A DNA stretch of 64,000 bases from Styela clava (taxonomy: Eukaryota), in assembly GCF_964204865.1 (NCBI RefSeq), contig NC_135261.1, positions 12,400,001 to 12,464,000 on the forward strand, written 5' to 3'. Position 1 is the first letter of the stretch, and each line of letters begins with the position of its first letter. Position numbers and translations under genes: made by a program. Of this stretch, positions 6,364 through 61,153 are shown one piece after another. The notes beneath the pieces are model-generated. The model had not been told where the DNA came from. It saw only the letters and a list, made by a program, of their open reading frames with translations, and did no database searches.

Positions 6364-6770
6364 GCCTTCGTACAAAAGATCCGAAAATAGCTTTTCTTCG
6401 CGACTAATGAATTTTGCTGTTGTTTGTTGTACATCAAGTAGAAATCTTCATATGAAAACTGGTACTCGGATTCATATTACATTGGAACAAGTCGAGATGT
6501 TGCAGATATATACTGCGATACTGTATCAACATTTGGACACTCATTTTGGTTCGATTTGTAGCCTACCCGATTGAGATTGTGATGATAGTAATTAAATCTT
6601 GAATCATTAGCTCATTTGAAATAAATATGTAATGAGGATAAACACGATATTAGCGACGGTAATATCTTTTTATTGCTTTCCTTCAGCACCTGTTGCATAG
6701 ATTTCTAAGCACAAGGCGCATAATCCGTCAGTGAAGACAAGCGCTCTTGCGATACATAAATAAATGAAAA

Positions 6771-7940
6771 ATGTTCTTTTCAAATTTGTTTAATCTCGGT
6801 GAGGTTCACCCGTCTGAGATTCATTTCACTGTAGATAGATTTGCTATTTACGTGTCAGAAATCGAAACAACAAATAGAATGAATTTCACCGCTATGAAGG
6901 CAATTCAAGAAAGTACGATGCAGGTTGATGCTCAAGTGTCAGAAATCGAAACAACGAATAATATGAATTTCACCGCTATCATGGACATTCACGAGAGTAC
7001 GTCTGAGGTTGATGCTAAAAACTATACAAAGTCTTATTTTTCTAACAACTCTACTTTGACTTACTCGCTTCATATGTCGTTGAGGGCTGTGCTAACAATA
7101 GTCTGTGGATATCTCCTGGTTAACAGGGTGTCAATCTTTATGAAAGAAGGACATAACAGAAATAAGAATGCCTGGAACAAATGGAGCAAATTATCTACAA
7201 TTACCGCAATTGCTTGTCATGTACTGTCAGGTATAAGCTCTTGCACAAGCCTCACTCTGGATTATTATTTCATAGACTGTTGCGATGTCTTCAAATCCTT
7301 TACGGTCGTTTTATTCGGTCTTGTTAACATGGCAGTACTGGTGTCAATATGGTGTACACAGCGAATAATTTATACCAATTCATTTTTGGATCCACTAACG
7401 AACAAATTTACAAAGTTCCTGAGCAAATCATCTGCAATTTGGATCTTGTCGTATCCGATATTAATCGCGATGGTATTACATGCCGTGATAGGTTCATCCA
7501 CTTGCCTCGAGAAAGGATCGTCTCCGGGAATTCGACAATCGACCGTGTTTATGGGTGTTGTAAGAATTTTTGAGAAGTCAACTATTTTCGGCTTGCTCTT
7601 TTTTCCTATGATCAAGCATTGGTACAACAGGCAGAATAGCACGACAAATATAATATCGCCTGTGATTCCAATTATAAAACGCTATTTGAAGGTATGTGTT
7701 GCTTTGGTAGTCATTAAGACCATTTTCACTATTATGTCTGTAACGTTAGGCGCGTATGAATGGTATGACTCCACATCAACCACATTTGTTAACCAAACCC
7801 TCAACGTAATTGCATGCGTATTCACTTTCTACGAATGGAAAACTGTTTTGTTCTCATGTAAGAAACATTCGCGAGTTGACCCAACCGATATTCCCATGAA
7901 AACACTTCATCGACCTTACCCCCTACCAGCATTGGCATGA
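6771..7940 (+). CDS. Intronless orphan 7-transmembrane (GPCR-like) protein, 389 aa
   Basis: Long ATG-TGA ORF in AT-rich DNA; Ser/Thr-rich N-terminus with N-x-S/T sequons; seven hydrophobic segments; Cys at start of TM3 (CCDVF) and in ECL2 (STCLE); WCTQRIIY at TM3 end in place of DRY; LFFPM in TM5. Confidence 0.8.
   Translation: MFFSNLFNLGEVHPSEIHFTVDRFAIYVSEIETTNRMNFTAMKAIQESTMQVDAQVSEIETTNNMNFTAIMDIHESTSEVDAKNYTKSYFSNNSTLTYSLHMSLRAVLTIVCGYLLVNRVSIFMKEGHNRNKNAWNKWSKLSTITAIACHVLSGISSCTSLTLDYYFIDCCDVFKSFTVVLFGLVNMAVLVSIWCTQRIIYTNSFLDPLTNKFTKFLSKSSAIWILSYPILIAMVLHAVIGSSTCLEKGSSPGIRQSTVFMGVVRIFEKSTIFGLLFFPMIKHWYNRQNSTTNIISPVIPIIKRYLKVCVALVVIKTIFTIMSVTLGAYEWYDSTSTTFVNQTLNVIACVFTFYEWKTVLFSCKKHSRVDPTDIPMKTLHRPYPLPALA
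6852..7019 (+). repeat. In-frame 84-bp (28-aa) tandem duplication in the receptor N-terminus
   Basis: VSEIETTNRMNFTAMKAIQESTMQVDAQ / VSEIETTNNMNFTAIMDIHESTSEVDAK, also matching at DNA level. Confidence 0.95.
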
Positions 7941-33885: not shown

Positions 33886-34728
33886 ATATTAATCCCTCTG
33901 CAGTTGATCGACCCCTCAAACGGAATGATTTTACAATATAATGACAATGTCGTCGGTAACTTGACACTAGGCTCAAAATCCTACTGTGTCTGCTCGAAGT
34001 ACTGAAAAAGATCTCCAGGTTTCTGAATCTTGCGAGATTTGATAAAGCGCATTCGCGACGAATCGGAGTCGAAAAAGCGAAAAGTGATTACTCGGCGCCA
34101 AGATGTCGCGAAAGACGTTGCCAAGAAGCTGCAATATATGACGGCGGAAGAGAAATTGTGTAATAAATTACCGCGACCTCGTCTTTAGTAAAGCGATTGA
34201 GACGGCATAAAAACAACGAAATTTCACGCGGACTGAGGCCGGCGTAGGGAACCACTGTTTTAAATCACCGGAAAGTTATGGAAGAAATGATGAATGAAAT
34301 TTCTTGCATTTTACAGAAGAAGACGAGTGAATGTACAAAGGTCCGAGCATAGTAGGCCGCAGGCGGTCTTGCTACTTACTGAATAGCGTGCGAAACACCG
34401 CAAAGCGCGCAGAACAGAGAGAAACAGCGCAGAACAGAGGGAAACAGCGCAGAACAGAAGAAATTCTGCAACAACATTCATTATTTGCTGTCCAAGGTTT
34501 GCAGATATAGCTTTATGAACTTATATTAATAGAGTACCTACTATAGTCTATAATATCTTCTCTGCAATGAATAATTGAAACGTCTGAGTAAACCTACCAA
34601 CTTGAACTCAAAACATCAGTTACGACCTGTGGTTTAGGATCTGGAAAGATGTCAACTTCAAAATCTTGTGATGTTCCTCCAGACCCTCCAAAAGCCCCAC
34701 CGATCGACAAGCTGGTAGTACTTTTACA

Positions 34729-35619
34729 GTGCCAAAATTGTCGGAGAGTAAAATCTCTGATTTGGTTACAGTGCTTGAAAGCACAATATTAAAAACATTG
34801 CGTTTAGAAATACCAGCAATCATTGAACAACATCTGGAAAGACTTGCTCAAGATGTCTCTTTAACCACTCCCACCAGCATTGGCATCCAGCAGTCCTTGT
34901 CTTCACTGGATGAATCACTGAAGGAAGTGAAAACCCAGCTGTCCTCCTTCAGTATAATAAAAGATGAAGTGGGAGAGATTAAAAGAAGCCAGGACTTCAT
35001 TTCAAAAAAATTTGATGACCTTAGTGCAAACTATAAAGATCTGAACAACACAACAGCAAAAAATAACAAAAAAATTCGCGAACTCGAACTTATCGTCGAA
35101 GATCTTGAAGAAGAAATAGATATCTTGACCGAACGCCAGCAAGATCAAGAGCGCAGATCTAGACTAGATAATCTAGAGTTTCACAACATCCCATACTCCA
35201 CAGATGAAGACTGCGAAAACATAATCATGAAAGTAGCAGCTCGAATCAATGTACCACTTCAACCATTCGACATATCGAACTGCCACAGGATGTCGAAAAA
35301 CAACAAGAAGAAACCATCACCGATCATAGTAAAGTTTGTCAACCGAAAAACCAGACATAATATTTTAAAAAATCGTCGTCAGCTAAGAACAGCCAACTTT
35401 CGTACCGACTTTCCACAATTACCATCATCCACCAAAATTTTTGTTGTGGAAAATTTAACCGACACTAATAAAGACTTATTTTATAAAGCCAAAGATCTCA
35501 AAGTCATTTGTGGATATAAATTTTTATGGACGCACAATGGGAGGGTACTCATTAAAAAGAACTCAATGACCAAAACCATCCCTATTGTCACTGAAGATGA
35601 CCTTTCATTCATCAAGTAG
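34729..35619 (+). CDS. LINE ORF1 (coiled coil + Tnp_22/RRM-like + C-terminal domain)
   Basis: Coiled coil then RRSRLDNLEFHNIP, CHRM, PIIVKF, IFVVENLT, YKFLWTHNGRVLIKK. Likely true ATG at 34649 (MSTSKSCDVPPDPP) is out of frame by one indel. Confidence 0.85.
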   Translation: MPKLSESKISDLVTVLESTILKTLRLEIPAIIEQHLERLAQDVSLTTPTSIGIQQSLSSLDESLKEVKTQLSSFSIIKDEVGEIKRSQDFISKKFDDLSANYKDLNNTTAKNNKKIRELELIVEDLEEEIDILTERQQDQERRSRLDNLEFHNIPYSTDEDCENIIMKVAARINVPLQPFDISNCHRMSKNNKKKPSPIIVKFVNRKTRHNILKNRRQLRTANFRTDFPQLPSSTKIFVVENLTDTNKDLFYKAKDLKVICGYKFLWTHNGRVLIKKNSMTKTIPIVTEDDLSFIK

Positions 35620-35754
35620 GTTTTTTGATTTTATGTCTGGTCGTAATAATAATAATAATTCAGTTGTATGTCTATACAATTATTGATAGTTATATATGTT
35701 TGACTTTCCTCGATTCTGTATTTTCCTTACAATTTTTTTTTCTCACCCTTTTAA

Positions 35755-38728
35755 ATGGCTTGTGATAGTGTTAGTAATAGTGAATTCCAATTAGATCATC
35801 TTGATAATTCTGTCACATGCAACAATGTGGAAGTTGCAAATTTATATTCAATTCAAACCCTGTCAAACTCAAAGTATTTTTCATGTGAATATCAGATCCC
35901 TCATGAAAAATTTAGACGAATTGACCACGCTTCTATCCAATTTTTCTTCACCTCCACACATAATTGCAATAAGTGAAACAAAATTATCTGATAACCATGA
36001 TTTTAATATACCTATTGATGGGTACAGCTTCATACATGCGCCATCTGCCACTAAAGCAGGTGGTGTTGGTGCATTTATAAGAGATGATATCACCTACTCT
36101 GAAATTACAGAGCTTGACTTTAATAATTATTCTAACTGCGAAAATCTGTGGTTCGAAGTCAGTTTGGTGAACACTTGCAATAACCTAGTAATCGGCGTTA
36201 TATATAAACATCCTCGCAATGATATTTTAAATTTTACTGATGCATTTGAAACCTCTTTATCCAAAATGGCACATAAACACTTTTTGATTGTAGGGGATTT
36301 TAATATTAATTTATTTTCAACTTCTACTAATACCCAAGTTGCCAGTTATGTTAACATGCTTATGTCACATAATGCCACTTCCCTGATAACAAAGCCCACT
36401 AGAATAAGTCGTACTTCAGCAACGTTAATTGACCACATCTACACTAATATGAGCAATTCACAAATCAATTCTTTTGTCATTCTGTCTGATATCACAGACC
36501 ATTTTCCGATTATGTGTTGCCTGAATGGCATAAAACCAACATCTTCTAATAATTGTGTATTGTCAAGGGACATGTCCACATTCTCTCTGGACACTTTTCG
36601 TTCAGATATAATAGGCATTCTTAACAACCAATTCACCACACTTCAATTAAATTCACAAAACTTTGACAGTGTCTTTGACGAATTTGTACAATCATTTGTT
36701 TCTTTGATTGATCGACATGCCCCTTTACAACCACTTTCACGTCGTCAGAAAAGGATAAGACTAAAACCCTGGCTTACTAAAGGATTGATTACTTGTATTC
36801 GACGCAAAAATAAATTATTCAAATCTCATTTTTTGAGGGGTAACAGCTCTCAATGCTCGTACTTTAAAAATCATCGGAATGTTCTGACAAGAACTGTAGA
36901 TATAGCAAAGCAAATTTATTACCAAAACCTTATTGCCCAAAACAGAGGCAACCCGAGATCGACATGGCAAATAGTTAACCAAATTACGCACACGCATAAT
37001 AAATCAAGACAAAAAGTTAAGGAAATTTATCTGAAAAATGGCAGTATCACCAAAGATGACTTTTCGATATCAACTGGATTTAATGAGTACTTCTCAACCA
37101 TAGGGTCCAGCCTCTCAGAAAAGTTTTCTAATGATTCGGGTAACTTCAAACAACTTCTTCATAATCCTCTGAGCCAGTCTATATTTTTGAGTCCGACTAC
37201 TTCTAATGAATTGTTGGTAGAAATTCAAAATTTGAAGGATAGGAAGGCAGTTGGGCCAGATAATATTCCAGCTCGCTTTCTTAAATTAGTTGCTGACCTC
37301 ATCGCTCCATGTCTGACAGAGTTCTTCAATTGCTCACTCTCTCTCGGCATATTTCCTTCTTCTCTCAAAATTGCAAGAGTAATTCCTCTTCTTAAATCTG
37401 GAAATAAAAAACTCGTGTCAAATTATAGACCGATATCAATCCTTTCAACGATTGATAAAATTTTTGAACGCCTGATTCATAAGAGGCTTACTAGTTTTTT
37501 CAATAAATATGATGTCATAAATAAATCTCAATTCGGTTTTCAAAACAGTCATTCCACATCGCATGCTATTTTAGACACTACATCATTTATCTATGATAGA
37601 CTAGAAAAGAAAGAGTATGTTAGTGCAACTTTTTTAGACTTAAAAAAAGCTTTCGATACTGTAAATCATGACATCCTGATTTACAAGTTGAAACATTATG
37701 GTATTAGGGGTATAGCAAATAAACTCATTTCTAGTTACTTAAGCGGTCGATCACAGTATGTTCAAGTAGGTTCTTATTGTTCTCCTCCCTTACCAGTGAC
37801 TCATGGAGTTCCACAAGGTAGCTGTTTGGGTCCATTGTTATTTTTAGTATATGTTAATGACATATCTCATTGTTCTTCATTATTCTCGAAATTATTTGCA
37901 GATGATACCAATCTCCTTGACAGTGACAAATCCTGTGCAGCCCTTGAATTAAGGGTGAACACTGAAATTGCTAAAGTAGCAAACTGGATGCGATCAAACA
38001 AATTAACAATAAACATAAATAAATCTAAAACTATGTTAATATCACCTAAAAGTAAAGCACAAAATGGTTTAGTAGTCCAAATTGATGACACATAACTTGA
38101 AAATGTAAATTTTTATAAATATCTGGGTATTCATATTGATAACAAAATGAAGTGGGACATTCAAATATCCAAACTGGCTGTTAAACTATCCAAGTCAGTT
38201 GGGATACTATATAGACTTCGGCGATTTGCTTCACTCACAACATTACGTATGGTCTACCACTCCTTATTTCAGTCACACATTCAATATGGCATTGTTGCAT
38301 GGGGCTTGGCTGATAAAAATTTATTACGTAATATTGAAATTATGCAGAATCGAGCAATTCGCGCTATCTCCAATGTCGGTTATCGCACTCATCTGACTCC
38401 TATTTACCACAGTATTCGCATAATTAAAATGGTGGATATGCATAAATTCGAAGTGCTAAAAATAATGCACCAACATCACAACAAAAAACTCCCTCCTGCA
38501 TTCACTAATTATTTTATGAAGCAGAGTGATGTTCACTCATATGGAACAAGGTCCTCGACCAGTTGCTCATATTTTTTGAATCGTTTTTCTACCAAACTAA
38601 CCCAACGCTCAATCAAGTTCATTGGAGTAAAGTTATGGAATTTGCTTCCTGAAACAATTCGTACAAGTAACTATAATTCTTTTAAATGTAAATTGAAAAC
38701 TTTATACCTTGAAGCTTATAGGTGCTAG
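35755..38728 (+). pseudogene. LINE ORF2 (AP endonuclease + reverse transcriptase) with one frameshift and one in-frame stop
   Basis: HVNIRSL, ISET, GDFN, IDHIY, TDHFPI (APE); YRPIS, FLDLKKAFDTV, GVPQGSCLGPLLF, FADDT, YKYLG (RT). Frameshift near 35870 between the ATG-35755 frame and the main frame; TAA at 38093-38095 is in frame with the 38147-38728 ORF. Confidence 0.92.
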
Positions 38729-44200: not shown

Positions 44201-47200
44201 TTTATAATTAATAAACTGTGTTGCGTAGCTCTTAATTTTTTTTCTTGTGTGTTATTATTTTTCTTACTATGGCATGTTATATTCTGTCAATATTTTCAAG
44301 GCATGAAATGATTGGATGAATAGGAAATTATTTAATTATTCAACTAAGTAATCCTTGGCAATTATTTGTTTACAATTACATGGGATAGGATAGGATTTAC
44401 ATATTTATCTTTGGGGAGAGGAAAGAGATAGAATAGAATGAAGGTAAGATGCACACAATGCAAATTGTTTTGTAATTTAATTCTGAATATTAACTCTTAT
44501 ATATCTTTTTTCTCATTAGTTCATAATTAATAAACTGTGTTGCGTAGCTCTTAATTTTTTTATTGTGTGTTGTTATTTTTTTATTATGGCATGTTATATT
44601 CTGTCAATATTTTCAAGGCATGAAATGATTGGATGAATAGGAAATTATTTAATTATTCAACTAAGTAATCCTTGGCGGCAATTATTTGTTTACAATTACA
44701 TGGGATAGGATAGGATTTACATATTCATCTCGGGGGAGAGAATATTTAGGAGGTATTAGTTTAATTCTGATCATGTTTTGAGTAACTAAATTATTTACTG
44801 GTTTGAAGGACTATTTACGAGGCTTTTCCTTGGTTTAATATATTCTTTTTTCTAGTAACTAAAATAATTATTGCGATTGAGTGGATAATTGGTTTCATTT
44901 TTTAATCATGTTTTGATAACTAAAATTATTATTACATTTGAGTGACTATTTGGTAGTAAGTAGTTTCAATTTAATCATGCTTGGAGTAACCCAAATAATT
45001 ATTTTATTTGAGTGGATATCTGAGAGTTACTGGTTTTAATTTAATCATGATGTGAGTAATTAATATAATTATTGCATTTGAGTTGATATTTGAGAGTTAT
45101 TGGTTTCAATGTACTTCTGTTTTAATTAAATGAAATAGTTATTGAGTTTGATTGGTTTTAGTTTTATTATTTTTTTTTTATTATTGTTTTGAGTAATTGA
45201 ATTGTTACATTTGGGTGTTCATTTGTGAATAATTAGTTTTAATTTAATTATGTTTTGAGTAACTGCTATAATTATTGGGTTTGAGTTAGTATTTGAGTGT
45301 TATTATGTTCAATTTTATCATTTTTTGGGTGACTAAAATAACTATTCCATCTGGCCGACTATTTGGTAATAAGCAGGTTCAATTGCATCATGTTTTGAGT
45401 AACTAAAATATTTACTGGTTTGAATGACTATTTACGAGGCTTTTCCTTGGTTTAAATGTATTCTTTTTTCTAGTAACTAAAATAATTATTGCGTTTGAGT
45501 GGATAATTGGTTTCATTTTTTAATCATGTTTTGATAACTAAAATTATTATTACATTTGAGTGACTATTTGGTAGTAAATAGTTTCAATTTAATCATGCTT
45601 GGAGTAACCCAAATAATTATTTTATTTGAGTGGATATCTGAGAGTTGCTGGTTTTAATTTAATCATGATGTGAGTAATTAATATAATTATAGCATTTGAG
45701 TTCATATTTAGGAGTTATTGGTTTCAATGTACTTCTGTTTTAATTAAATAAAATAGTTATTGAGTTTGATTGGTTTTAATTTTTTTTTTTATTATTGTTT
45801 TGAGTAATTGAATTGTTACATTTGGGTGTTCATTTGTGAATAATTAGTTTCAATTTAATTATGTTTTGAGTAACTGCAATAATTATTGTGTTTGAGTTAA
45901 TATTTGAGTGTTATTATGTTCAATTTTATCATTTTTTAGGTAACTAAAATAACTATTCCATCTGGCTGACTATTTGGTAATAAGCAGGTTCAATTTCATC
46001 ATGTTTTGAGTAACTGAATAAAAATTGCATTTTAGTGGATATTTGGTAGTTATTGATCCAAGTTTTAATTTAATCATGTTTTGTTTTGAGTAACTAGAAT
46101 AATTACTACATTTGAATGACTATTTGGTATTAATTAGTTTTAATTTACCGTAATCATGTTTTGATAACTAAAAGAGTTTGGCTTCTGGAGTGATATTTCC
46201 TTAAAATCCCTTGTATCCTGAGAGAGTGTTATTGTTCCATTAACCAGAAAACAAGCAATGGTACAAAATTTGCAAATTAATTTGGGATAGACTGGAGGGA
46301 GCGATACAAGTACAACCATAATAAGGTCAACAGAGTCAGCTCCCCCCAAATCCACCATTGAGATTGATAGTTAAAGTATATAAACATTGATCAAAAAGCT
46401 ACTTGTTGGAGGGATGACTATACCTTCTACAGAAAAATATTGGGTTTTAGTTAAGTAACAAAATGGTTCAATCTATGGACCCTTACTTGGCGTTGCAGAT
46501 AATAGATCAGGGGTTCAACTCCAGTAGTCAATCTGATATCCTGGACAATCCAATGAATTGAGATCTTTTCTCACGGTATCTCGATCAAATAGCTTTTAGA
46601 ATGTCTTTTGACCACATGGAAATAAAGGTCTTTACTTGGTGTCATAGTTGCCAAAAGACTCGGCGTGAACTTGTTACTTCTTACAGGAAAGGTGAAATGG
46701 TGAATAAAAAACTACTAAAGCGTCCTGTAATGTCAAATACGTCATTTGCGATTCAAAAGAAAAAACTTTTAGATAGCAAGTCACGAATGATTGCATGGGT
46801 TGCTAGCGATTGCGATGTTACAGAGGGTGCAAGTGAAAGACTAAAATTGGTTGAAAAACTGGAACGTTTAGGTTAGTACAATTGAGATTTCTGTTCTAAT
46901 GATTTTGCATGTTTTTAGCTGGGAAAGATAAATTAGCCATGTTTGCATTAACCTATTTTCGACATAGACATTTATAAATCGAGCTTTCACTTTTTGCAGG
47001 TAATATTCATTTAGACAAGTTTGGAAAATGTGCCAATGCTGAAATTCCTTACAACTACACAGTGTTATTTCAGACTTTGAAGCCTTACAAATTTTATTTG
47101 GCTTTTGAAAATTCTTATCATTGTAGGGATTATATAACAGAAAAAGCTTTTTATAATGGTTTGGTTGCTGGTACAGTTCCAATAGTCCATGGGCCAACTA

Positions 47201-47613
47201 TTGGAGATACAGAAAAAATACTTCCTAAGGGTTCTTTCATACATATCGAGAGTTTCAAGAATTTGACATCCCTTGCTGAATATTTGGTATATCTGGATTC
47301 AAACGACACAGCTTATTTAGAATATTTCAAATGGTGGAAACTGCATGGAACTCGCATCATACCCAGATTTGGATTTAATTATGGTTCTAGGCCTATTAAT
47401 TACAATAGAACTGATCCAGAGGACTTCCAAACTGTTGCGCAGCACAATGTTTGGACTTCTGCTATTCAGGATGACATGATGGAAATAGAAAGATTTGGGC
47501 TTTATCATTTGTGTAGAAAACTGTTGAAAATGGATCATATTAAGACTTCAAAATCGATTTCAAATCTTAGTCATTGGTGGTATGGTACTGAAAATGAAGA
47601 ATGTCTCAAATAA
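41274..47613 (+). CDS. Alpha-(1,3)-fucosyltransferase, glycosyltransferase family 10 (~449 aa, 5 exons)
   Basis: Exons 41274-41445, 41656-41845, 43186-43374 (same-phase alternative donor after 43365), 46687-46871, 47000-47613; GT-AG, phases consistent (1350 nt). Type II anchor RKKTVLFVFSVLFLSLL; ESP; FNWTMTYRRDSD; AWVASDC; YKFYLAFENSYHCRDYITEK; YLEYFKW. Start could be ATG 41289. Confidence 0.93.
44114..44740. repeat. Tandem duplication of ~310 bp in FUT intron 3; each unit ends in a minus-strand SINE tail fragment
   Basis: 44114-44420 is nearly identical to 44432-44740; both end GGGATAGGATAGGATTTACATATT..GGGGAGAG. Confidence 0.9.
44770..46170. repeat. ~69-bp satellite (~20 monomers) with a 9-mer higher-order repeat
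   Basis: Monomers begin ATCATGTTTTGAGTAACT; blocks 44770-45386 (617 bp) and 45387-45997 (611 bp) are far more similar to each other than adjacent monomers are. Confidence 0.92.
46218..46372 (-). mobile_element. LINE-like 3' end fragment, family C
   Basis: Reverse-complement homology to 33730-33885. Confidence 0.65.
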
Positions 47614-56500: not shown

Positions 56501-57638
56501 AATATAACACTCTATTTTGACATCTTTGTTGACGAAAGTGTGTCCAGATTCTCGTGTGCTCGTCTGAAATCAGAAAGTGAGTTGTGCTATGCAAGCGTTT
56601 GGTGCAGCGACGAGCAACTAACGTGTCATGTCCAGGTCACGTGTTAAACAGCAAGTATTGAATTGTGAGCCGCTATATATTCGAATATTTTGCCCAGCCC
56701 TACTCAGTAATCATTGACTTTATGCAATTAAACTTGCTTTTGGGTATTATGTAAACTCACGTGAATCAGCTGGTATATCAGTCAGGTGAAAACGTTTGCG
56801 TCCCGCAGTGAATTTCTTCATGTGAAAGTGGCCCGCGACACTAAAAAGGTTGGGCGGGCCTGCGGGGCCAAATCCGCATGAGCCCGACTTTCATGAAGAG
56901 CGAAATTTTTTGTCAGTCGTTTCCATCACAAAATTCATATTTTTTCAGCCGGTTCTGCTACATATTATTTAAGCAAATGAACTGATTATTCTTAATTACT
57001 TCCTAATTAACATTTCAAAATAATGGTTAGGTAAGCATTAATTTGTCAAAATTAGCATCGGAATTTTTAATGATGTTGATGATTGTCCATATTGCTGTAT
57101 ATATTATATACTCGTTGATAATGAACTTAAAAACCTGAAAGTGTATGATTACTGAAAATACATGCTTGAATGTTGATATATATTCTATAAAAATGCTGTT
57201 ATTCTATAAAAAAAATAAACACAAGAAATCTTTAACAAAGAAAAAAAAGTTTACTGAAATTAAACTCAAATTTTGCAGTTTATACATCAAATATTTCCAA
57301 ATGGCGACCTGATTGTCATAAATTCCTTGTCTGTCATCTCATGACTTGTACCTATGGCGCAACAATTCAATTTTCAGACAAACAATCACAAAAGGAAAAT
57401 TACTACAATTATAAAAATTAACACAAAGTATAATTGTTACGTGCGAACTTTATCATTTCACATTTTGAAAAAACACGTGAGCTATTTGGTTTTAATTAAA
57501 CCCTACCCTTATATTGAATTTAAAATGTGTGGGAGAGAAAAGGTTCATTGACTTGGGGTAAGGTGGAGATCACATCACTATTCAAGATTGTGTGATGTCA
57601 CAATCACAATTATGATATTTGTCACTTGATTTTTATAT

Positions 57639-60596
57639 CCCCTTCGGTCACGGCATGTACAATTGTACCAGCGACTTTCCGCGGTAGATATAGCACACGT
57701 GATACACCTAACCGAAATTAGTCACGGTGTGTTCAATTGAGCTTTCTCGGTTCTATCGCGCTATGAGTTTGGTTTTATGCCTCCCGCTAGTGGTGAGTCG
57801 TCTGGCAGCGTGAAAATTGCGATGGCTGAAGCATGCTCAACAAGCGGTAAGTTGGTGTAATTTTTTTACCATTTTCTTGTGTGTAGAGCCAATAAATTAG
57901 GTTTAGACTGCAATTAGGACTACTTGGGGTGACGTTTATCCAGTTTTTGGTTTCGGTTGAGCTAATATGTAGATGGTAGAATTTTTTAAAAATTGGTGTG
58001 TACAATTGTACCTTTCGTGACTAACATGAGAAAAAAGCACAGACTTTCATGAAATAAATCACTTTGTTTTATATGTTTTTAGGGCCTTGAATTTTACCAG
58101 GAAAGTTCACAATCATGTGTTGCAGTGTTATTGAAAGTTCTGTTATCGGAAGTCTCTCTATTATATTGATTATAGCAGAAAATTTCATGTTAAAATTATC
58201 CAAAACTGTAGCCTAACTTGGTATTTTTATGGTAGTGCAGTACAGCTTAGGGTAATGTAAATCAAGGTCTAAGTTTTATAGAACAGTGATTGGGAGATAA
58301 TAAGCGTATATAGCAATAGTGAAAGCTTTAATTTTTAAAGGTATACTTTAATAGTACTGAAGCTAAAATGTTTTTCCAGGCTGTAAAGTAGCAAGTGTTA
58401 TACCAACCCTGGCAATGAAATATGTTTTGTTTTAGTGAGGCAGGAGATATTGAATGCAGAAGAGGTGTTAGATCGACTAGATGAGTCTGACATTGACCTT
58501 TCTGGATCCGAAGATGATATGGAAGAAGAATACGATTCAAATTCCTACAGTATCAATAACAGACTGGTAGTTTCGACCAGCAATGAAGACGTGGAAGAAA
58601 TTGAGGAGCCAGCTGATGCTGTAAACAGTAGTAAGCAACAGGAAAAAAAGTTCAAAATAAAGTGGCATTCGCCAGATAGAAATCCATTTCAGCCTGGATT
58701 TCTGACCTGGCAAGAAAGGCCAATTGCTGCTGATCCTCTAGATACACCTGCAAAATATTTTTTCAACTACTTCCAACCAGAACTATTTCAACTTTTTGCG
58801 GATCAAACAAATATTTATCACTTGCAAGCAAAGGGCAGAATTCTTGGTACCAATTCAGTCGAAATATGTCGCTTTTTTGGGGCGTCGATTGTGATGGCTA
58901 ACTTGGGTTTCCCACGACTTCGGATGTATTGGCAAAAAGTGAATCGTGTTGACAAGATTGCTGAATCCATGCCCGTTAATAGATACTTCCTGCTTCGTAA
59001 TAGCTTACACGTGAATGCGGCTAGACAACCTCCTACTGGAGAAAATTGTAAGTTTTGGAAGGTGAAGCCAGTTATTAATGCAGTTCGAAATCGTTGCATC
59101 CAGTTGTCTCGTGAGGAATTCAATGCGGTTGATGAGCAAATGATTCCTTTCACTGGTAGACTACCTGCTAAACAATTCGTCAAAGATAAACCCAATCCTG
59201 TTGGTCTCAAGAATTTTGTTATTTGTGGTAAATCTGGGCGAGCAGTCGATTTTGAAATTTATCAAGGTGCCGGCACAGGAATTCCGGATGAAACTAAGCA
59301 TCTTGGTCTTGGTGCATCTGTGGTTCTACGCTTGGTGGAGACCATACCAAAACAAAAGAACTACAAAATTTGTTTTGACAATTATTTCACCGGAATTCCA
59401 CTGATAAGAGAATTAAAATCAAGAGGCATTCATTCACTTGGAGTTGTTAAAAGCAATCGACTGATGGGGTGTGAACTAAAATCTGAAAAAGACCTCAAGA
59501 AGAAAGGAAGAGGTGCAATCGATTACAAGGTATCAGACAAAGGTGATATTTGTGTAGTCCGTTGGATGGATAATGGCGCTGTAACACTTGCTTCAAGCTT
59601 CGCTGGCGTTGACGAAAAGGATCAGGTGCGACGGTGGAGAGCCAGCACAAAAGAACACATCATGGTAGAAAGGCCAAAATGTGTTCAGGTGTACAACGAT
59701 AATATGGGAGGAGTCGATAAACTAGATTTCCTCATTTCGCTGTACAGGACCAAAGCTAAAACAAAGAAGTGGCCAGTTAGAGTAATTTTCCACTTCATGG
59801 ATTTTGCGCTAGCAAACTCGTGGCTAGAATATCGCGATATTGAACGAGCAAATGGAACTCCAAGGTCACGCATCATGGACCTACTGGAATACAGAAGCGA
59901 GGTTGCATTTGCTTTGCTCAAAGCTAACGTGTTTACCACGGCATTGGTGAAGAGTCCCACTGTCGGAAGACCGCGTTCTACTTCACAACAAGTTCAAACA
60001 GAAAGACAAGTGCCACATTTGGCTAAGAGGCGCAAATCATCAGAGCGACCTGTTGGAGATGTTAGATATGATGGTTTTATGCATTTTCCATCTTGCATAA
60101 ATGGATTAGGCCAGAGATGCAAATACGAGGGTTGCAATGGAAGAAGTAGAGTTAAATGCAACAAGTGCAACGTCTTCTTGTGCCTCACAAAAGAGAAGAA
60201 TTGCTTTTTGAGTTTTCATAGCAAGTGAACTTTTAAAAAGAAAAAATTTGAAAAAAATATTAACAGATCTGTGCTCTAGAAACTTGATCTTTCAATCAAG
60301 ATATCATTTATTTTGGTCGTTTTCACAACTTTTGTGCAGCAAAAGACAATTTTAAGACGATTGCAAATTAACTCGATGTTTTTTTAAGAATTTTCTTTTG
60401 TTGATTTCTTTTAATTTTCAGCAACTTTTTCTTGACTTTGACACAAAGTGTACATTTGTACACATCCCCTAATTTGCATATGGGGGGTAGAAAAAATTTT
60501 TTTTTAATATTTTTGTCAAAGATGACCAAAAATGAGTCAATTTGTAATAAAAAATAATTTTTTTCTGAATTGGATATATGTGCGTGACTGAAAGGG
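57639..60596 (+). mobile_element. Full-length piggyBac transposon (2958 bp) with ATAT flanks
   Basis: TIR CCCCTTCGGTCACG / CGTGACTGAAAGGG (12 of 14 match); ATAT at 57635-57638 and 60597-60600; sub-terminal GTACAATTGTAC palindromes; uninterrupted transposase. Confidence 0.93.
57822..60228 (+). CDS. piggyBac transposase (PGBD2/PGBD3-like), probably spliced: 57822-57846 + 58436-60228 (~605 aa)
   Basis: Acidic N-terminus; DDD triad (AVDEQM, CFDNYF, GGVDKLD); C-terminal Cys-rich domain CKYEGC..CNKC..LC..NCFLSFH. The main ORF has no ATG at its start and begins directly after TTTTGTTTTAG; upstream ATGGCTGAAGCATGCTCAACAAGCG|GTAAGT joins in phase 1. Transposase identity is firm; the splice model is inferred. 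Confidence 0.9.
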
Positions 60597-61153
60597 ATAT
60601 AGGAAATACAAATAAAAACAATGGATGTCGGTTTTTATACAATGTTTATTGAAAAGTCTCGTGATTTTCTACAGTGTAATTTTATTTTTGATAAATGAAC
60701 ACAGGAGACTTCTTCCAAAAAAAACGTAGTGTTATTCTTCAAAAGAAAATAAATCTAAATCCTGTCTAAGTTTCGGGGAAAGACGGTAAGAAGTGCTGTA
60801 CAGTGTACAAAACTGCTATGCGTAAAAAAGCCACATGGTCATTCTTTGTGTAGCAAATTTTTGTTCCTTTGAGGAGATCGTAAAAAGGAAACTTTCACAG
60901 ATTAGAATTTAAATTCAATTTGATTTTTTTTTTTTTTTGAAGATTCACGTATTCGAGTCGCCACCGATCCTAATAGCCAATATAATTAATCAAAGCTTAC
61001 TACATCTTTTCACGACCCACTAAGTTTCCTTTTGCGACCCATAGTTTGGGAACCGCTAATCTAAAGCATTAGTATTTATTTAAAATAAAAAGAATGAAAT
61101 ATATATGTGGGATATGAGCATGTTCGCGAACAAAATCATCATTGCGTTTTGCA

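Follow-up and report, generated by a model that had tools for sequence, protein, structure and literature searches.

Must a piggyBac transposase read TTAA, the tetranucleotide treated as the hallmark of these transposons, or can a natural family settle on other targets? The question is raised by an element of Styela clava that lies in a 64,000-nucleotide stretch of contig NC_135261.1 (assembly GCF_964204865.1, positions 12,400,001 to 12,464,000 of the forward strand), referred to here as the window, whose own numbering is used throughout. The element occupies 57639-60596 (2,958 bp) and is flanked on either side by ATAT; it is a member of the piggyBac superfamily without the TTAA hallmark. The account that best fits the evidence, and which is probably though by no means certainly correct, is of a complete, low-copy PGBD3-like piggyBac that makes a 4-bp duplication and whose transposase reads the central TA strictly while accepting A or T, and rarely G or C, at the outer positions, the ATAT of the window being one draw from this spectrum. 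Published work is cited by its database identifier.

A complete element flanked by ATAT

An initial annotation of the window reported ATAT on either side of an unbroken DDD transposase with a complete Cys-rich domain, and this is borne out by the letters, by a Pfam match and by alignment. The 14-bp terminal inverted repeats (TIRs) are imperfect, with 12 of 14 positions matching between CCCCTTCGGTCACG and the reverse complement CCCTTTCAGTCACG, and they agree with the description of piggyBac TIRs in PMC5381638 as 12-19 bp long and starting with C[CAT][CAT]. On the plus strand the 3' end reads CGTGACTGAAAGGG at 60596, after which ATAT follows. A second full copy elsewhere in the genome (L002), 98.6% identical, has the same first and last bases in unrelated flanks, which means that the boundaries in the window are not due to chance; this copy is flanked by TTAT at both ends. 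The 4-bp target duplication of the superfamily is evident both from L002 and from unoccupied paralogs of the insertion site. Close to the left end, the motif TGTACAATTGTACC (Table 1) recurs at 57999-58012 and, in an 86% version, at 60449-60462; these copies are likely to be further, putative transposase-binding sites.

Target sites of the family

The family of the window element is called family A here, and families B, C and D are comparison piggyBac families of the Styela clava genome. Family A is small, comprising two full copies and fragments, and all copy counts given for it are lower bounds. The two full copies differ at 42 of 2,958 bases (1.4%), with seven silent and nine changed codons. 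Their similarity supports the view that the window element is young, and it looks intact, although the divergence would be a sign of recent movement only. Searches with the TIR and with each end found no expansion of miniature inverted-repeat transposable elements: the TIR pattern gave nine ends, end searches gave 5 and 10 matches, and wider regions yielded no further end.

Three left and seven right ends of family A are readable, and these resolve into seven independent insertions (Table 1) after two tandem copies sharing one flank are merged; older fragments without readable ends, two in C9 and others in C18, C19, C4 and C17, are not counted. Four insertions are in TTAT/ATAA, two in ATAT and one in ATAC, whilst TTAA is found at none. 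The central TA is present in all seven, every flank is at most one change from ATAT, and the per-position consensus is ATAT. Among the 14 outer bases, nine are of the ATAT type, four of the TTAA type and one is neither. The upper 95% bound on TTAA use is 35%, and family A does not behave as a TTAA-specific family. ATAT for its part accounts for a minority of the readable insertions (2/7, 95% interval 4-71%), with which interval a modest preference for ATAT would be compatible. At TTAA rates of 0.967, 0.88 and 0.79, the chance of finding none in seven is 4e-11, 4e-7 and 2e-5, respectively. Avoidance of TTAA by family A is suggested by these data.

Other piggyBac families in the same genome

A strict TIR scan found ends for only one of 20 other loci, and a looser scan gave families B and C. 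Family B is about 2.83 kb long, with 36-42% protein identity to family A. From 30 pattern matches, 23 true ends were retained by a 40-base match and seven dropped, giving 15 insertions, of which 11 are in TTAT/ATAA and four in TTAA. The two-ended pairs are ATAA on both sides (2), TTAT on both sides, TTAA on both sides (2) and two asymmetric ones, ATAT with ATAA and ATGA with ATAA. Family B is a second young family, and a case of relaxed targeting that is better sampled than family A. Its loci (L107, L108, L109, L111, L119 and L125-L154) have the TIR CCACTTAACGACG and near-identical ends, and at least one of them (L107) contains an open frame of 610 codons.

Family C, which is also PGBD3-like and has about 40% protein identity to family A, is different. 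Here 31 matches were obtained and 30 examined, with 20 ends kept and ten dropped, leaving 14 insertions. TTAA is the target in 11, one of them with TTGA opposite, and the others are TTCC, TTTC and CTAT; TTAT, ATAA and ATAT do not occur. Family D belongs to a far clade (25% protein identity to family A) and its sample of 12 matches and 11 ends gave nine insertions: TTAA in four, TTAT in one, and four that have no central TA (TTCC, TTGA, CTGG and TTTC). The right ends of family D (L202-L213) are identical over 40 bases, and ten right ends were found along with only one left end.

Fisher tests on the use of TTAA separate family A from family C (0/7 against 11/14, p = 0.001) and B from C (p = 0.009), but not A from B (p = 0.26). 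The proposal that the target had shifted away from TTAA therefore holds at the level of the family, and other members were not found to sit mostly in TTAA. The more specific part of it, that ATAT is the new target, does not stand, ATAT being outnumbered by TTAT/ATAA. As family C is canonical in the same genome, the shift is family-specific rather than host-wide, and it is not unique to the window element.

Table 1. Coordinates of the element and its surroundings in the window, and location and flanks of the family A insertions
Feature	Location	Strand	Basis or flank
Left target duplication copy, ATAT	57635-57638	+	Window letters; empty paralogs with one 4-mer (GTAT) at the site
Left TIR, CCCCTTCGGTCACG	57639-57652	+	Identical start in L002; TIR pattern search
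Subterminal motif, TGTACAATTGTACC	57656-57669	+	Repeat and inverted-pair analysis of the element
Predicted first coding exon (8 codons and 1 base, then donor GTAAGT)	57822-57846	+	In both full copies
Predicted intron (pyrimidine tract and AG at its end)	57847-58435	+	Acceptor at 58435 in both full copies
Transposase coding exon (acidic N-terminus, DDD core, Cys-rich C-terminus)	58436-60228	+	Open reading frame, Pfam, alignments
Right TIR, CCCTTTCAGTCACG on the minus strand	60583-60596	-	End comparison; TIR pattern search
Right target duplication copy, ATAT	60597-60600	+	Window letters
Host repeat, left part	57487-57634		Paralog comparison, exact-flank matches
Host repeat, right part	60601-61057		Paralog comparison
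Family A insertion	Window		ATAT, ATAT (two-ended)
Family A insertion	C17		TTAT, TTAT (two-ended)
Family A insertion	C1, 5' end		TTAT
Family A insertion	C9, 3' end		ATAC
Family A insertion	C4, 3' end		ATAA
Family A insertion	C2, 3' end		ATAT
Family A insertion	C1, 3' end		ATAA; two tandem copies, one flank, counted once

The empty site and the origin of the window ATAT

The window element splits a dispersed host repeat of about 0.8 kb with at least 82 copies, which provides a view of the site before insertion. Each of 18 paralogs examined has a single 4-mer, GTAT, between its two flanks, from which it follows that the duplication is 4 bp long. Genome-wide, 82 exact-flank matches to the empty site read GTAT in 79 cases, TTAT in two and ATAT in one. 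Raw reads of one sequencing run (X12) include an empty joint that shares three letters, seen from 12 read starts, which is what GTAT would produce, and eight reads that depart from the left end at 57636, indicating xTAT where x is not A. The initial annotation had put forward empty sites with a single ATAT as a check; the empty paralogs do have a single 4-mer, but its letters are GTAT and not the anticipated ATAT.

Since the empty site is GTAT in nearly all paralogs, the window ATAT may partly derive from the donor. The lone ATAT paralog was considered as a sister of the host copy in the window and rejected, as the two have only 3 of 23 private alleles in common. The host copy carries 24 private changes over 520 positions and, leaving the target site aside, a G-to-A change at 2 of its 81 G.

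The excision chemistry of piggyBac proceeds through hairpins, with 4-nucleotide 5' overhangs that the element brings along from its donor site and that are joined to the target at a 4-nucleotide stagger. Two routes to the present flanks appear about equally plausible. The element may have inserted into a host copy already mutated to ATAT, a rare variant with a prior of about 1-2.5%. Alternatively, it may have inserted into GTAT, with both mismatched ends then repaired towards ATAT overhangs brought from the donor. One-sided repair of a donor/target mismatch at an ATAT site has been reported for piggyBac (PMC8717057).

The host repeat itself is about 810 bp long (L170:1029-1841), of which the window copy lacks about 200 bp on its left side. 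The two ends of the repeat seem dissimilar, one presumably recalling hAT ends and the other pogo/Tigger ends; it is possibly a composite non-autonomous element. On the plus strand, the private changes of the window copy include 13 A-to-G against two T-to-C, a strand-biased pattern.

The transposase and a candidate mechanism

An open reading frame at 58519-60228 (plus strand) encodes 569 amino acids from its first ATG without a stop. The product matches the full length of the Pfam model DDE_Tnp_1_7, 349 positions, with E 2.8e-63, and the catalytic triad of Trichoplusia ni (T. ni) piggyBac, D268/D346/D447, aligns with its D205/D288/D400. The Cys-rich C-terminal tail is complete and extends to the stop, with a His/Cys pattern that aligns with the other piggyBacs of the genome. 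The nearest named protein is a Styela clava PGBD3-like protein, 96% identical. The 569-residue product is probably not the whole protein, because the frame is open for a further 44 codons upstream of the ATG, from 58387, and the stretch ahead of the ATG is similar to the acidic N-terminal regions seen in homologs. Splicing as predicted in Table 1 would give about 605 amino acids, and an acceptor at that position would also be in keeping with the exon-trap arrangement of PGBD3 (PMC2268245). In a run whose reads are only presumed to be RNA, one contig continues past the predicted donor without splicing, and the expected joint is absent among the joints listed, observations that speak neither for nor against the intron.

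In the T. ni structure the target is unpaired, with T1 held in a pocket of V414, L416 and Y439 and A2 read by N440, whilst the outer T0 and A3 are hydrogen-bonded and stacked on Y283 of the omega loop (PMC7351741). All residue correspondences given here are from sequence alignment. The equivalents of V414, L416, Y439 and N440 are kept in the window transposase, which fits its invariant central TA. The omega loop is altered: K290 is replaced by P, the next residue is V, and Y283 is replaced by F, where 13 of 14 non-family-A proteins shown have Y. The same F/P/V-or-E pattern occurs in most of the nearest homologs, in 29 of those rows among 120 that the search pattern could read, the pattern having failed on many; these homologs form a supported group in the tree described below. 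The relaxation would then be a property of the enzyme, with the outer target positions loosened, and the changes Y283F, K290P and the following V are a candidate cause. In families B and C the loop reads QY..KPHKWG, and family B is relaxed without these changes; relaxation can thus occur in their absence, and they may have no bearing on it.

Weighing the alternatives

Several observations weigh against relaxed reading of the outer positions as an enzyme property of family A. Only seven insertions are available and five of them are one-ended, which leaves room for a flank that was donor-derived or mutated later; that single-end flanks are noisy is seen in family D. Under an assumption of no preference, the absence of TTAA from six WTAW sites (W being A or T) has p = 0.23, too high to demonstrate either an exclusion of TTAA or a preference for ATAT. 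In the second full copy, a G397E change lies beside the third aspartate. Family B keeps Y283 and K290 and is relaxed all the same, and no two-ended relative of the family A subclade was found among the metagenome loci scanned or in viral contigs.

The strongest competitor is a true switch, in which ATAT is now preferred, one outer mismatch is tolerated and TTAA, two changes away, is disfavoured. This is a possibility of some substance, if an unlikely one. It accommodates the closeness of all seven flanks and of 9 of 14 outer bases to ATAT, and ATAC differs from TTAA at two positions; at the window site, either the variant found once among 82 host copies was chosen or the donor already lay in ATAT, and the loop pattern is special to the family A subclade. 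Set against this are the low count of ATAT itself beside TTAT/ATAA (2/7 and 4/7) with its wide interval, the p value of 0.23 for the missing TTAA under no preference, and the lack of a significant difference between families A and B, whether in TTAA (p = 0.26) or in ATAT (p = 0.23). The extended version, that a widespread subclade with the loop QF..KPNP[V/E]G moved from TTAA to an ATAT-centred site by way of the omega loop, is more doubtful again.

That family A is an ordinary piggyBac specific for TTAA, its few copies being rare off-target events or having mutated flanks, is largely refuted and very improbable. Off-target insertion does occur with T. ni piggyBac, at about 3% (PMC3064801) and once in ATAT (PMC8717057); single-copy ATAT, TTAT and ATAA flanks were put down to mutation in the survey PMC5381638, and family D demonstrates that flanks can be damaged. 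However, both two-ended copies of family A, only 1.4% apart, have identical non-TTAA duplications at their two ends, a complete lack of TTAA in seven insertions would be highly improbable under every published rate, and family C keeps TTAA in the same genome. A host factor or host repair, rather than the transposase, as the source of the non-TTAA flanks might be thought of, as the distant families A and B are both relaxed in one genome, but it is hard to credit when family C has TTAA in 11/14 and TTAT/ATAA in none. Finally, the alternative reading raised in the initial annotation, of a TATA duplication with element ends T..A, is compatible with the window letters and can be dismissed, since it would leave L002 with T..T as its ends and with flanks that differ, and would call for a 2-base deletion at the empty site where one substitution suffices for the ATAT parse.

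Relatives within and outside the genome

The tree on which placement is based is a quick one, in which 37 of 120 homologs were combined with 16 proteins of the genome to give 53 rows, with L112 and L120 omitted and neither T. ni piggyBac nor human PGBD3 among its rows. In it the window transposase groups with proteins named PGBD3-like (SH-aLRT, the Shimodaira-Hasegawa-like approximate likelihood ratio test, 100), apart from ten other piggyBacs of the genome, a placement that rests on the source names. Families A, B and C form three separate lines of one group in which A and B are not sisters. Named homologs within the family A subclade come from an ascidian, a snail, a brittle star and ticks.

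No relative was found in metagenome contigs, searched with a single protein, or in viral contigs. Of 53 metagenome loci, 29 were scanned; the closest (L214, L215 and L233, 50-60%) are without ends, and the distant loci with both flanks readable (L223, L243 and L248) all have TTAA on both sides. Two other organisms, represented by runs X9 and X10, contain 32% and 18% of the words sampled from the element, possibly as related species or through horizontal transfer.

Other features of the window

Elsewhere in the window is a long interspersed nuclear element (LINE)-like element at 34672-38728 (plus strand), in which a first open reading frame matching Baculo_FP_2nd is followed by an endonuclease and reverse transcriptase, with a stop at 38093-38095 interrupting the frame. 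An exon of a family-10 fucosyltransferase gene lies at 46978-47613 (plus strand). A 390-codon open frame at 6768-7940 (plus strand) has no Pfam match and contains an 84-bp tandem duplication. Finally, at 44901-46173 a 70-bp unit that is strongly G/T-skewed is repeated about 18 times in tandem.

Significance

The specificity for TTAA is named as a limit of piggyBac tools (PMC13461360). In the window, an enzyme taking any WTAW would find 2,650 sites against 572 for TTAA alone, or about 4.6 times the number. The hope that the element might supply a different target set is therefore not sustained, the spectrum looking wider rather than different or orthogonal. An ATAT-centred switch, if true, would mean that transposases with seamless excision have a second target code in nature, and it would put the structural model of how TTAA is read directly to the test. 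Families A, B and C, with TTAA at 0/7, 4/15 and 11/14 within one protein group, form a natural series for the residues that fix the outer bases. Surveys filtered for TTAA may under-count families of this kind; the largest survey allowed two mismatches and so would retain the window element (PMC13461360). A literature search, with Repbase and Dfam outside its scope, gave no paper that describes a natural piggyBac family inserted mainly outside TTAA, and none on the piggyBacs of Styela clava.

Comparison with known systems

The Repbase/Dfam label piggyBac-A is tied to ATAT duplications, and the TTAT system among the commercial Leap-In transposases comes from a silkworm piggyBac-like element, silkworm elements being tied to TTAT. 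Both associations lower the novelty of the present family and, if the first is right, ATAT as a target is already catalogued. The Leap-In transposases are described as tools with TTAT or TTAA duplication, and ATAT is not named in the available part of that source (PMC8252637). Surveys have recorded single elements with ATAT, TTAT, ATAA and other flanks and ascribed them to mutation (PMC5381638, PMC10813416); the supplement of the former lists elements with ATAT flanks, which may bear on novelty. A survey of Hymenoptera gives TTAA only, as far as its available text goes (PMC13416829), and the available portions of PMC2872659, PMC9004415 and PMC5753468 contain nothing on non-TTAA targeting.

The window element is like T. 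ni piggyBac (PDB 6x67; PMC7351741) in its DDD triad, CCC..GGG ends, 4-bp duplication and Cys-rich C-terminus. The two transposases are nonetheless distant (E 1e-19) and their omega loops differ at R275, Y283, K290 and Y291. In fission yeast, T. ni piggyBac inserts into TTAA in 96.7% of cases, against none of seven in family A; the remaining 3.3% are non-TTAA, and precise excision from TTAG has been reported (PMC3064801). PGBD3/MER85 has a splice acceptor just upstream of the transposase exon, as is predicted for the window element, most of whose named homologs are called PGBD3-like; unlike family A, it duplicates TTAA (PMC2268245). Non-TTAA use is thus known so far as a minority of insertions (3-12%), together with TTAT in the commercial system. 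A parallel in target choice is Pokey of Daphnia, with natural duplications of TTAT, ATAA and CTAA, for which its authors concluded that the middle TA alone is essential (PMC3849761). Pokey is in TTAA in 88% of cases and elsewhere in 12%, whereas in Styela clava non-TTAA sites account for seven of seven family A insertions and 11 of 15 in family B.

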